Shown piece by piece: positions 7,695 to 15,698 of a stretch of DNA of 55,778 bases. The number at the start of each line of letters is the position of its first letter. The stretch's first letter is position 1. The translations under genes and the position numbers were made by a program. This stretch comes from Spirochaetota bacterium. GTDB lineage: Bacteria; Spirochaetota; UBA4802; UBA5550. Location: contig JBBRFT010000001.1 of NCBI GenBank assembly GCA_038241375.1, positions 1 to 55,778 of the forward strand, written 5' to 3'. Under the pieces are notes generated by a model. It ran no database searches and was not told the DNA's origin. It worked only from the letters and a program-made list of their open reading frames with translations.

Positions 7695-7848
7695 TATATA
7701 TACTCCATTTAAAATTTTTTCATTCCGCCCGCCGCTCATGGCGCGGGATAAGCGATCCGGAGATTCCCCCGAAACCCCTGCCAGTCAGATCATCTGCTAA
7801 CTGGATAGACACACGGCTTCAAAAAAGCCGCGGGTGAACGGTGATTCT

Positions 7849-13087: not shown

Positions 13088-13906
13088 TTAAAAAATCTCG
13101 TCATCCATGAATTTTTTAAGTTTAAGAACTTTTTCAGTTATCGCATAGAACTGCTCCGGAGTCAACTGCTGATCGGCATCACTCTTCGCTTCTTTAGGAT
13201 TTATATGAACTTCAACAAGAAGTCCGTCAGCACCGGCAGCAACAGCAGCAAGACACATTGGCTCGATAAGACTCAGTTTACCTGTTCCATGTGAAGGATC
13301 TACCATTACGGGAAGGTGGGTCAGCTCTTTAAGCGCCGGGATTATACTCAGGTCAAGTGTATTCCTTGTGTATGTCTCAAAGGTTCTAATCCCTCTTTCG
13401 CAGAGAATAACTTCAGGATTCCCTTCAGCCATAATGTATTCTGCGCAATTCAGCCATTCCCGGACAGTTGAGTACATCCCTCTCTTCAGGATTACAGGTT
13501 TTTTAGATTTTCCTACTTCTTTAAGAAGAGAGTAGTTCTGCATATTTCTTGTACCGATCTGTAAAACATCGGCGTACTCGCAAACCCAGGATACATCTCT
13601 TGGATCGATTACCTCAGTTACGATAGGAAGACCTGTCTTCTGCTTTGCCTTTTCAAGAATTTTAAGACCCTTTAGACCGAGTCCCTGAAAATCATATGGA
13701 GAGGTTCTCGGTTTGAAAGCACCGCCTCTAAGCATATTTCCATGCCCTTTTTTAACAGCCTCAGCTGTTTTCAAAGTCTGCTCTTCACTTTCGACAGAGC
13801 ATGGGCCCCCGATAATTACGAAATCCTTCCCGATGATTGAATTGCCTACTTTGAATGTGCTCCTCTGTTTATCATCATTAATCTGTACCAGCTTAAGATT
13901 TTTCAT
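13088..13906 (-). CDS. aroF: DAHP synthase, type I-beta (KDO8PS-like), core barrel only
   Basis: 272 aa with [26 protein letters not shown] and VDPSH blocks. There is no N- or C-terminal regulatory extension. GGAG RBS. Confidence 0.85.
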
Positions 13907-13985
13907 CTATTTCTCCATTTTTATCTATTTTCATCTATTTTCTACATTTTCATCTACATTCTAATTATAATTGAAGGACTAACCT

Positions 13986-14025
13986 ATAAAAAAAGCCCTT
14001 TGAGTTTTTATCAAAGGGCTTTTTT
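13986..14025 (-). terminator. Intrinsic terminator of the aro attenuator
   Basis: 12-bp perfect stem (13992-14003 pairs with 14011-14022), a 7-nt loop, and U7 on the minus-strand RNA. It lies between the leader ORF stop (14052) and the aroF ATG (13906). Confidence 0.75.
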
Positions 14026-14034
14026 AAGTATATT

Positions 14035-14049
14035 CTTATGATAAAACTC
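14035..14049 (-). promoter_or_regulatory. Candidate antiterminator strand
   Basis: RNA GAGUUUUAUCAUAAG is complementary, with two single-nt bulges, to CUUUGAUAAAAACUC (14016 to 14002). That target is the distal half of the terminator 5' arm, the loop, and 2 nt of the 3' arm. The segment starts 2 nt after the leader stop codon. Confidence 0.55.
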
Positions 14050-14051
14050 GT

Positions 14052-14165
14052 TCAGTTCAATATGTCGCTTACGTAAAAATAGAAATAGAAAAAACCAAAG
14101 CCAAAAGACTTCAGTTCGTTTACTGCATAAATTCCGTTAAGAGACTGTTTTACCAGAGATTTCAT
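14052..14165 (-). CDS. Phe/Tyr-rich leader peptide (37 aa): MKSLVKQSLNGIYAVNELKSFGFGFFYFYFYVSDILN
   Basis: Hand translation of the minus strand, ATG at 14165 and TGA at 14054-14052. Residues 21-31 hold 6 Phe and 3 Tyr and no Trp. The ORF is below the 60-aa cutoff of the supplied track. The AGGA lies about 16 nt upstream, which is a weak RBS spacing. Confidence 0.6.
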   Translation of the reverse strand: MKSLVKQSLNGIYAVNELKSFGFGFFYFYFYVSDILN

Positions 14166-14210
14166 AAAGGTTTTTAAAGTTTCCTTCTCAATTATATTTA
14201 AAACAATAAC

Positions 14211-14241
14211 TGTATAGTTTCTACACACAGAAACCTGTCAA
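14211..14241 (-). promoter_or_regulatory. Possible promoter of the aro leader, with a palindrome in the spacer
   Basis: Minus strand TTGACA (14241-14236), a 19-nt spacer containing GTTTCTgtgtgtAGAAAC (14234-14217), then TATACA (14216-14211). The spacer is longer than optimal. Confidence 0.3.
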
Positions 14242-14353
14242 ATATTTTTTAATAAAAAAACAAAAAATAAGAAAATTTTATCAGTTTACTGACTTATCGG
14301 TCGGTTTTAAACCCCTCCAGAGGTGCGGAATCTTCACCACATCTCTTTTGCGC

Positions 14354-14387
14354 AGCCCCCTAAATCCCCCGGGTGATTTAGGGGGCT
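14354..14387. repeat. 13-bp perfect hairpin built from the GGGGGATTTAGGGGG repeat
   Basis: AGCCCCCTAAATC ccccgggt GATTTAGGGGGCT, located 33 nt downstream of the stop of the 14420 gene. There is no U-tract. Confidence 0.6.
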
Positions 14388-14419
14388 GTTGAAAAGTGGG
14401 TAATGTACCCGGGGTGAGT

Positions 14420-15034
14420 TTAATACTTTATCTTTGAATACTTTTTAAGATATATAAATCTCAGAAGAGCAGATTCGATAATGTTTATCGGTTTTGCTCC
14501 ACCGAGATATCTGCCCTGAACATGAATCCGGCATGCCTTTTCGGTAATCATTGCAGTTGCAATCGCGTCATCCAGAGATATATCCGCGCACATCGATCCG
14601 TAATCTTTAATGAGTAAAGCACTCCGTCTTTTAATGAGAGATTTAATCTTACCGGTATTATCAAGCTCTGTACATTTTATATCAATACCTGCAATCTGAG
14701 CAATATCATCGACATACGGGCGTACCGTTTCACCTGTTCGTGATACAGAAAGAGAATATTGAGTTTTGCTGTTAATTATTGAGCCGAGTCTTTTATATTT
14801 TGCGTACAGTAGAACATTTATTTTTGAAATTTTATCACTATCTGAAAAATTATCTTTTATATGAAAGTTTTTCAAGTCGCTCTCCCTCAGCGAAGAGAGA
14901 TCAGCACCCTCTCTTGTGATCCATATATAATCACCATGGCGCATACTCACTCGATCATCTGAAGTAAGAACTCCGGAGATAACAGCAGGGGTACAGTGAT
15001 CTGCCAGTATTGATAATACATTTTTAATATCCAT
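14420..15034 (-). CDS. Class II aldolase/adducin-fold paralogue with all metal ligands substituted
   Basis: It aligns by eye with the upstream paralogue. HMEIY becomes NVLLY, IIHTHQ becomes IINSKT and ANHGA becomes KDYGS. I prefer the ATG at 15034 (GGGGA RBS) to the track start at 15100. Confidence 0.65.
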   Translation of the reverse strand: MDIKNVLSILADHCTPAVISGVLTSDDRVSMRHGDYIWITREGADLSSLRESDLKNFHIKDNFSDSDKISKINVLLYAKYKRLGSIINSKTQYSLSVSRTGETVRPYVDDIAQIAGIDIKCTELDNTGKIKSLIKRRSALLIKDYGSMCADISLDDAIATAMITEKACRIHVQGRYLGGAKPINIIESALLRFIYLKKYSKIKY

Positions 15035-15044
15035 ATATAATCCC

Positions 15045-15698
15045 CTATCTCTTTCCTTTCTGCATCTCGTAATGCCCGCATATTGTTTTATCATCTGCAT
15101 TTTTAAGTCCGGTCATATCCATAAAGCATTTACTTATAAATTCCTCACAGACCTTTTCCAGAACTCTTGATACTGCAAATGCTTCATCAATATCCTTACC
15201 TATGCAGACAGCTCCATGATTGGCCATGATCGCACACCTTGAACCTCCGACAGCTTTGACAGTTTCAGATGTAAGCTTATCTGTTCCGGGAAGACCATAT
15301 GCTCCGCAACGGACAATTTCTGTTGAAAGAATATCACGGTCAGCTGTCGATATAATGGGCACGTCTTTACGCGCTGCCGAGCAGACCGAAGCGTTTAACT
15401 GATGTGTATGTATAATCGCACCTGATCCCGGCTGCTTTTTATAAATCTCCATATGCAGTTTACGTTCCCCGGAAGGTTTTACGTCACCTTCAAAACTTCC
15501 GTCATTGAGATTTATAATAACTATATGCTCAGGCCTCACATCTTCATACTTTACACCGCTTGGCGTGATTGCCATTGTCTGTTCATCTATACGTATGCTA
15601 ATGTTTCCCCAGGTCCGAGCAACGAGCCCCTCTTTCACAAGACGGAGTCCCGCCGCACAGATATTACGCTGAGCAGCAGAGATCAGATTTTTATTCAT
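15045..15698 (-). CDS. Class II aldolase/epimerase family enzyme (FucA/AraD/MtnB-like)
   Basis: TWGNIS, a Glu in HMEIY, IIHTHQ and MANHGAVCIG, which together form the full Zn-ligand set of the family. Confidence 0.8.
   Translation of the reverse strand: MNKNLISAAQRNICAAGLRLVKEGLVARTWGNISIRIDEQTMAITPSGVKYEDVRPEHIVIINLNDGSFEGDVKPSGERKLHMEIYKKQPGSGAIIHTHQLNASVCSAARKDVPIISTADRDILSTEIVRCGAYGLPGTDKLTSETVKAVGGSRCAIMANHGAVCIGKDIDEAFAVSRVLEKVCEEFISKCFMDMTGLKNADDKTICGHYEMQKGKR

Follow-up and report, generated by a model that had tools for sequence, protein, structure and literature searches.

A putative ribosome-mediated attenuator with a mixed Phe/Tyr leader peptide upstream of a spirochaete aroF–tyrA operon

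Attenuation of amino acid biosynthetic operons via a leader peptide is a textbook mechanism, exemplified by trpL, pheL and hisL. The Escherichia coli pheL-pheA and pheM-pheST leaders combine a run of Phe codons with mutually exclusive terminator and antiterminator structures and a stop codon that is placed such that a terminating ribosome blocks the antiterminator. The T-box leaders of aromatic genes in the Firmicutes have no ORF and sense uncharged tRNA directly. Closer to the subject of this report are two leaders found upstream of aroF. The Corynebacterium glutamicum aroR leader, with a Phe-Tyr-Phe sequence ahead of an aroF operon, is a ribosome-mediated attenuator according to PMC11802643 (citing Neshat et al. 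2014), which summarises experimental evidence that Phe limitation raised transcription and that Tyr availability did not. The uORFC-13-1 motif of Acholeplasma comprises a predicted upstream ORF with Phe codons located directly before an intrinsic terminator and occurs exclusively upstream of aroF (PMC8632094). For the spirochaetes, we found no report of leader-peptide attenuation of amino acid operons in the full-text literature. An earlier note on the DNA described here knew of no description of a mixed Phe/Tyr leader governing a complete aroF-to-tyrA operon; a mixed leader controlling aroF is on record, however, in the form of aroR (PMC11802643).

The DNA in question (referred to below as the window) is a 55,778-nucleotide stretch from a Spirochaetota bacterium. 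On the minus strand, an eight-gene operon (13906–5842) comprises aroF (13906–13088), aroB (13076–12009), aroD (11994–11353), a fused aroE-aroK (11352–10051), aroA (10076–8829), aroC (8832–7849), pheA with CM_2, PDT and ACT domains (7739–6612) and tyrA (6615–5842), all assigned using NCBIfam and Pfam. The genes abut or overlap, the one exception being aroC and pheA, which are 109 nt apart. These assignments bear out the earlier description of the operon as possessing pheA and tyrA but no trp genes. A strong terminator, identified by reading of the sequence and by a terminator scan, is located at the end of the operon on the same strand (5832–5800; AGAACAAGGGG-UUUCA-CCCCUUGUUCU followed by AUUUU). 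Judging from its sequence, the region upstream of aroF very probably forms a ribosome-mediated transcription attenuator governing the entire operon, with an end-product codon run, an intrinsic terminator, an exclusive antiterminator and the characteristic placing of stop codon and codon run all present.

The product of the first gene is a 272 amino acid type I-beta DAHP synthase consisting of the catalytic barrel only. The enzyme contains a single DAHP_synth_1 domain (Pfam/NCBIfam), among solved structures it lies closest to the undecorated enzymes of A. pernix (1vs1) and P. furiosus (1zco), and in an alignment with the 338 amino acid T. maritima enzyme, which bears an N-terminal extension, its residue 5 falls opposite residue 70. 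The earlier view of AroF as a bare barrel without an allosteric domain is therefore upheld. In general, type I-beta DAHP synthases that lack a regulatory domain are reported to escape feedback inhibition (PMC6362186). With the usual allosteric domain missing, transcriptional control would make up for it, and it is reasonable to suppose that such control is the main form of regulation at the entry point to the pathway. The aroF ORF is preceded by a Shine–Dalgarno sequence (GGAG, 13916–13913) located 6 nt upstream of the ATG.

Further upstream on the minus strand is an ORF of 37 codons plus stop (14165–14052), with a start codon at 14165–14163 and a TGA stop codon at 14054–14052, whose predicted product is the peptide MKSLVKQSLNGIYAVNELKSFGFGFFYFYFYVSDILN. 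Residues 21–31 (encoded by 14105–14073) have the sequence FGFGFFYFYFY, made up of six Phe, three Tyr and two Gly residues with no Trp; direct reading shows that the earlier note had located both the ORF and its aromatic run exactly. No other leader-peptide candidates were found in the 55-kb window. The exact peptide is absent from a collection of 15 billion proteins, in which close relatives are present without names.

To place the leader in an evolutionary context, AroF was used to scan one genome per GTDB species, yielding 80 loci (designated L followed by a number). The clade to which the window belongs is made up of 21 Spirochaetota loci with AroF identities of 82–97%, the closest two (97% and 96%) being from Spirochaetota metagenome-assembled genomes. 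As had been proposed in the earlier note, relatives sharing the operon were searched for a short F/Y-containing ORF upstream of aroF, and such an ORF is retained in all 21, with a TTG start codon in three. Across these loci the leader frame is free of stop codons (the other two frames have 104 and 22). In a codon alignment of the 21 leaders, seven columns of the run are occupied almost entirely by Phe or Tyr, with third-base variation (TTT/TTC and TAT/TAC) and swaps between the two amino acids, and the residues towards the N- and C-termini vary freely. At the amino acid level, constraint is confined to the F/Y columns. Freely varying ends, coupled to an F/Y-only run that undergoes synonymous change, indicate selection on codon identity and not on the protein, and from the frame-specific openness of the ORF and its conservation at the codon level we infer that it is translated. 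Spacing is also preserved: the distance from the run to the stop codon is always six or seven codons, and that from the stop codon to the upstream strand of the antiterminator (see below) is 0–4 nt in all 21 relatives and 2 nt in the window.

Between the leader ORF and aroF lies an intrinsic terminator (14025–13988, minus strand) made up of an A6 tract, the stem strand GCCCUUUGA, the loop UAAAAAC, the stem strand UCAAAGGGC and a U7 tract. The stem strands pair 14019–14011 with 14003–13995, and A:U pairs contributed by the flanking A6 and U7 tracts extend the stem, giving a 15-bp hairpin in ViennaRNA with an energy of −19.3 kcal/mol for the fold in which the terminator is the sole helix. This fold dominates in the full-length RNA. 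The hairpin is conserved in the relatives, where 99.1% of alignment cells are paired and three pairs have changed on both sides (n = 21), confirming the terminator stem and U7 tract described in the earlier note. A simple terminator scan did not report 14025–13988, probably because the stem is extended through A:U pairs that use up the T run. In the window, 81 nt separate the end of the U tract from the aroF ATG (13906). Tandem Repeats Finder identifies a 10-nt repeat here, TAGATGAAAA, present in around six copies on the minus strand (13956–13900), beyond the terminator and ahead of the ribosome-binding site of aroF. The repeat is confined to the closest relatives, with most relatives having a terminator–aroF spacer of ~30 nt, and is a clade-specific insert that probably lies outside the switch.

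The upstream strand of the proposed antiterminator, GAGUUUUAUCAUAAG (14049–14035, minus strand), begins immediately beyond the 2-nt gap that follows the stop codon. Its proposed partner, CUUUGAUAAAAACUC (14016–14002), lies in the terminator 5′ arm and loop region. As folded, 14049–14035 pairs with the 16 nt from 14017 to 14002 to give 14 bp interrupted by two bulges, and thus overlaps the 5′ arm and loop of the terminator. The structures available to the RNA depend on the position of the ribosome. When nascent RNA extending to the end of the terminator loop was folded with a ribosome footprint masked on the F/Y codons, the antiterminator formed (−7.3 kcal/mol), whereas with the footprint masked on the stop codon only −0.3 kcal/mol of structure was left. 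The helix obtained in this way is exactly that predicted in the earlier note, and the mutually exclusive folds that the note had suggested seeking are indeed found.

How far does this pairing exceed what might be expected by chance? As a two-strand duplex, the antiterminator has an energy of −10.3 kcal/mol over 14 bp, a value matched by none of 2000 dinucleotide shuffles of the upstream strand (mean −3.4 kcal/mol). Around 4% of arbitrary 28-mers drawn from the window match this pairing with the terminator arm, however, so that the signal from a single sequence is only moderate, and it is conservation across the relatives that makes the predicted pairing convincing. An equivalent of 12–14 bp is present in all 21 relatives, with per-sequence duplex energies of −9.2 to −14.4 kcal/mol, and in 17 of the 21 no more than five of 500 shuffles match the observed duplex. 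On a MAFFT alignment, 91.5% of antiterminator cells are paired, compared to 52% at most when the partner is slid.

Covariation in both helices, which the earlier note had suggested as a check, is seen in the terminator, with its three two-sided pairs, and modestly in the antiterminator, where a single pair in the MAFFT alignment has changed on both sides. High conservation within the clade leaves little room for covariation in the antiterminator. Other compensatory events were identified from the per-sequence duplexes and by eye, outside the MAFFT alignment. In L021 a three-way change alters a terminator pair from U:A to C:G and an antiterminator pair from A:U to G:C, matching both terminator arms, and in L020 an antiterminator U:A pair becomes C:G. 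In L008 and L013, a change of CUC to CGC breaks a pair in the terminator and matches a change from GAG to GCGG in the antiterminator strand (A:U to C:G). Antiterminator U:A becomes U:G in L009–L014, and in L017 the U run and A run of the antiterminator have shortened together. The antiterminator, which is AU-rich, has far less stability than the terminator and so would have to win kinetically. The antiterminator of the classical trp attenuator likewise wins kinetically.

The apical loop of the antiterminator contains an AUAUA box (14033–14029, minus strand) in which every one of the 21 relatives has ATA and at least 90% of them share the two bases that follow, within variable flanks. The sequence UAUAUAC is found also in the leaders of L036 and L040, which are otherwise unrelated in sequence. 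The possibility that the box (read as AUAUA/TATACT) is part of an internal promoter was rejected: the resulting transcript would hold the whole terminator, and there is no −35 box at a workable distance. A trp-like 1:2 or ‘anti-antiterminator’ pairing was likewise rejected. Codons 4–6, UGGUAAAAC (14155–14147), pair with GUUUUAUCA in the minimum-energy fold of the single sequence, but the pairing is no better than shuffles (mean fraction 0.21 across the 21 leaders) and is absent from the RNAalifold consensus.

That consensus, for the 21 leaders, contains two helices only: the terminator and a hairpin within the leader ORF, CUGAAGUC-UUUU-GGCUUUGG (14114–14095, minus strand), which the terminator scan flagged as terminator-like. 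The 6-bp core of the in-ORF hairpin is kept in 19–21 of the 21 leaders, with U:G/C:G/U:A and G:U/G:C/A:U variants, and U-rich F/Y codons follow it. The hairpin is a candidate RNA polymerase pause signal that may serve to hold the polymerase until the leading ribosome arrives, which would couple the two. The coding constraint on ‘FG’ overlaps the hairpin and confounds this reading of its conservation.

Upstream of the leader ORF is a conserved A/T-rich tract with a −35 box (14254–14236, with TTGACA at 14241–14236, minus strand). In all 21 relatives the TTGACA box, preceded by the A-rich tract, is found unchanged 47–76 nt upstream of the leader start codon. A weak candidate −10 box, TATACA (14216–14211, minus strand), can be read from the sequence at a spacing of 19 nt but is only loosely conserved amongst the relatives, so that the position of the transcription start is a matter of prediction. 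A consensus promoter scan called no promoter upstream of the leader, as a result of the poor −10 box. Reading of the sequence also reveals no Shine–Dalgarno sequence at normal spacing from the leader ATG, the sequence GAAGGA ending at least 16 nt before it. The weak −10 box and the missing leader Shine–Dalgarno sequence can be considered the weakest links of the attenuator model.

Taken together, these elements suggest the following model. Transcription would begin downstream of the conserved TTGACA promoter and a ribosome would translate the 37-codon leader, with the polymerase pausing at the conserved in-ORF hairpin and the U-rich codons until the ribosome arrives. With an ample supply of charged tRNA-Phe and tRNA-Tyr, the ribosome would pass through FGFGFFYFYFY and reach the UGA, where its footprint would cover GAGUUUUAUCAUAAG, allowing the terminator hairpin and U tract to form and transcription to stop before aroF. 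Should either tRNA be poorly charged, the ribosome would stall within the run, leaving 21 nt or more before GAGUUUUAUCAUAAG, which would then be free to pair with the emerging 5′ arm and loop of the terminator. The terminator would not form and the polymerase would enter the operon. As Phe and Tyr codons alternate, too little of either amino acid should suffice for de-repression (OR logic). Such logic fits an operon that makes both Phe and Tyr starting from a DAHP synthase that lacks an allosteric domain.

The alternative that fares best is not a different mechanism but a variant nested within this one, in which the same attenuator senses Phe only and the Tyr codons are merely tolerated as spacers. 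We consider this unlikely. Phe codons outnumber Tyr codons by six to three in the run in the window, and in C. glutamicum aroR, the sole tested analogue, Phe limitation acted and Tyr availability did not (PMC11802643). The relatives tell a different story, however. Tyr positions in the run are conserved no less strictly than those of Phe (Tyr fills one column in all 21 leaders and another in 20 of 21), replacement of Phe by Tyr is accepted where other residues almost never appear, and in some relatives the run is dominated by Tyr, as in the YYYFYFYFY of L008. That the operon ends with tyrA also argues for a sensor of both amino acids.

A more radical alternative is that the ORF is not translated at all and that the switch responds instead to a protein that binds RNA, to a small ligand or to uncharged tRNA, as in TRAP, PyrR, riboswitch or T-box systems. 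The leader ATG with its missing Shine–Dalgarno sequence would be in keeping with this, as would two conserved elements that have no proven role, the invariant AUAUA box and the in-ORF hairpin. The specific lack of stops in one frame, the restriction of synonymous variation to F/Y codons and the fixed spacings are, by contrast, marks of translation that an element working purely as RNA would not leave, and Rfam searches (E up to 10 on the leader region, gathering score on the whole window) brought no family to threshold, whether for the window or for 20 related loci. No T-box appears among the 35 matches listed for the leader region at E up to 10, riboswitches are similarly unmatched, and the whole window gave no Rfam hit at gathering score. 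Control of an untranslated leader in this way is thus very improbable. As for the idea that the ORF is the gene of a small hydrophobic protein that is itself functional, or that the unit is a small RNA ending in a terminator of its own, with aroF transcribed from a separate downstream promoter, in a few assemblies homologous peptides of 37 amino acids have been entered by gene callers as proteins without a name, but the peptide is not conserved outside the F/Y run, the unit is always found directly upstream of aroF, the ~30 nt between terminator and aroF in most relatives leave no room for a promoter and the conserved antiterminator is left unexplained, making this extremely unlikely.

The attenuator reading proposed in the earlier note is supported by the presence of all the classical elements in 21 of 21 clade relatives and by the recurrence of the same geometry in other Spirochaetia and in the Desulfobacterota. 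Amongst the 80 aroF loci, 31 have a short aromatic-rich ORF with a terminator within 70 nt, followed by aroF: all 21 members of the window clade, six other Spirochaetia and four Desulfobacterota. None of the 14 aroF loci from Syntrophomonadaceae/Bacillota (L022–L035) has an aromatic leader ORF with a terminator, and those of the Bacillota and Syntrophomonadaceae aroF loci that were scanned have neither a T-box nor a leader ORF. Six of the distant leaders, three from Spirochaetia and three from Desulfobacterota (L036, L040 and L075; L049, L052 and L057), were folded; MTNNFYFYYFYRYAIL (Spirochaetia) and MNTNQTRQSNYYFYFWRGGSLSMG (Desulfobacterota) are examples of the distant leaders. These six are unrelated to the window leader in nucleotide sequence but have the same geometry, and masked folding yields an antiterminator for each when the ribosome occupies the aromatic run, and none when it occupies the stop codon.

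A pattern scan of metagenomes with GGNTWYTTYTATTTYTATTTTTAC returned 97 stretches. Five of the 97 are true family members, all of them near-duplicates of loci already in the set, and the scan yielded no new antiterminator covariation. Three stretches (L109, L172 and L176) contain a separate F/Y leader, MNTAQGFGFFYFYFYFRE, which together with a terminator precedes a pheA-aminotransferase-tyrA-DAHPS/CM operon on a contig that we would guess to be from the Bacteroidota. The remaining stretches were rejected as low-complexity chance matches, including a recurrent CMGYFYFYFYSL element in ORF-poor contigs that are probably eukaryotic.

What might these results mean more broadly? The mechanism itself is known; what is added is a conserved architecture in a phylum for which we found no published example, extending leader-peptide attenuation to the Spirochaetota and providing a testable account of how entry into aromatic amino acid synthesis is controlled in a lineage of spirochaetes represented solely by metagenomes. 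Mixed Phe/Tyr(/Trp) leaders occur widely ahead of aroF (31 of 80 loci), are absent from Rfam and could be added to annotation pipelines, and the alternation of F and Y makes for a tidy natural case of an attenuator with two inputs. More tentatively, and with rather more doubt than conviction on our part, the Spirochaetota and Desulfobacterota leaders may represent an uncatalogued cross-phylum set of dual- or triple-input attenuators (F/Y, sometimes W) attached to operons for type I-beta DAHP synthases lacking a regulatory domain. Such attenuators could act as the main control at the entry point to the shikimate pathway and as an OR gate on the charging of tRNA-Phe and tRNA-Tyr, with the in-ORF hairpin and AUAUA box programming pausing.

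Finally, how does the window leader compare with the systems already described? None of the related aromatic leaders is represented in Rfam, where sub-threshold matches to the leader region are driven by the terminator. The best match is to the E. coli thr leader (Thr_leader, RF00506), scoring 30.7 bits against a gathering score of 55. Only the terminator aligns, and the match reflects a common arrangement of A tract, GC stem and U tract, the regulatory codons of Thr_leader being those for Thr and Ile. The window leader is not a sequence member of Phe_leader (RF01859), to which it scores 19.6 bits (E = 1.6) against a gathering score of 55. T-box leaders have the same output, namely a choice between terminator and antiterminator that is determined by tRNA charging, but the window would arrive at this by way of an ORF. 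The uORFC-13-1 motif, which is set beside the window leader here by its description, belongs to another phylum and encodes at least one Phe without the alternation with Tyr. The E. coli pheL-pheA and pheM-pheST leaders share with the window the codon run, the exclusive folds and the placing of the stop codon, but are Phe-only and control one or two genes. The closest parallel is with C. glutamicum aroR which, as summarised in PMC11802643, has Phe and Tyr codons in its leader and an operon headed by a DAHP synthase gene, just as the window does. On the same account, the aroR leader has a short Phe-Tyr-Phe sequence and belongs to an actinobacterium, whereas the window leader has nine Phe or Tyr residues in a stretch of 11, belongs to a spirochaete and precedes an operon that extends through pheA and tyrA. 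It is likely that the two arose independently and that their likeness is one of function only.

The stretch of DNA between the -35 box (TTGACA, 14241-14236) and the candidate -10 box (TATACA, 14216-14211) of the leader promoter is occupied by an inverted repeat on the minus strand (GGTTTCT-N6-AGAAAC, 14217-14235). Across the window clade (21 loci with 82-97% AroF identity), the arms of this repeat are conserved and its centre is variable, and in other clades the equivalent position is taken by GACCGATCGGTC or by GAC-N6-GTC. The repeat is a putative operator that could provide a second layer of control. Further downstream, the antiterminator strand and the terminator are separated by an interval that holds an AUAUA box (14029-14033, minus strand), which falls in the antiterminator's apical loop. 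The box is kept in 21 of 21 leaders (three bases are invariant and two are conserved at 90% or more) amid variable flanking bases, and UAUAUAC is found at the equivalent place in the leaders of two further aroF loci, L036 and L040, that are unrelated to that of the window. A possible role of the AUAUA box is that of a pause signal.

A tandem repeat of about six copies of the 10-nt unit TAGATGAAAA (13900-13956, minus strand) follows the attenuator terminator and precedes the aroF ribosome-binding site; it lengthens the terminator-aroF spacer to 81 nt, compared to around 30 nt in most relatives. The repeat is confined to the closest relatives of the window (aroF loci L001, L002 and L005, and L007 in part). 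In L001 (approximately 2321-2500) and L005 (approximately 2334-2500) the spacer is enlarged further by an insert, roughly 100 nt long and containing a GC-rich inverted repeat (for example CTCCGCCGCGCCGGAGGCGCGGCGGAG in L005), which resembles a small insertion of a mobile or REP-like kind.

Two other regions of the minus strand deserve mention. The aroC-pheA gap (7740-7848), in an otherwise tightly packed operon, comprises 109 nt of GC-rich sequence with two hairpins; it has no match in Rfam, and no Shine-Dalgarno sequence precedes the pheA ATG. Upstream of the leader, a strong GC-rich hairpin without a U tract (GCCCCCTAAATC-ACCCGGGG-GATTTAGGGGGC, approximately 14350-14392) directly follows an aldolase-like gene (14420-15100), and may be either the terminator of that gene or a repeat element.

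Looking beyond the window clade, a terminator stem of the form GCCGUG(R)..CACGGC is common to aromatic leaders of the Spirochaetia and the Desulfobacterota (L036, L040, L041, L046, L061 and L075, together with L049, L052 and L057). That this stem is found in both phyla, and that AroF at these loci is 71-75% identical to AroF of the window, suggests that leader and operon are transferred horizontally as a unit.

Aromatic-rich short ORFs, such as MTIARSRWQNFFYYFSFSYRYQENHK, are also seen upstream of aroF on four contigs labelled as archaeal metagenome-assembled genomes (L068, L070, L072 and L078). The 3' end of each pairs with a complement downstream, with no U tract following. This arrangement may be a form of the switch that acts at the level of translation; alternatively, the contigs may be mis-binned. 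A separate Phe/Tyr leader (MNTAQGFGFFYFYFYFRE) with an intrinsic terminator is present at 1268-1400 of L109, a metagenome contig that we would guess to be from the Bacteroidota, upstream of a pheA-aminotransferase-tyrA-DAHPS/CM operon; L172 and L176 are similar. Leaders of the L109 type and the window peptide have the core GFGFFYFYFY in common.
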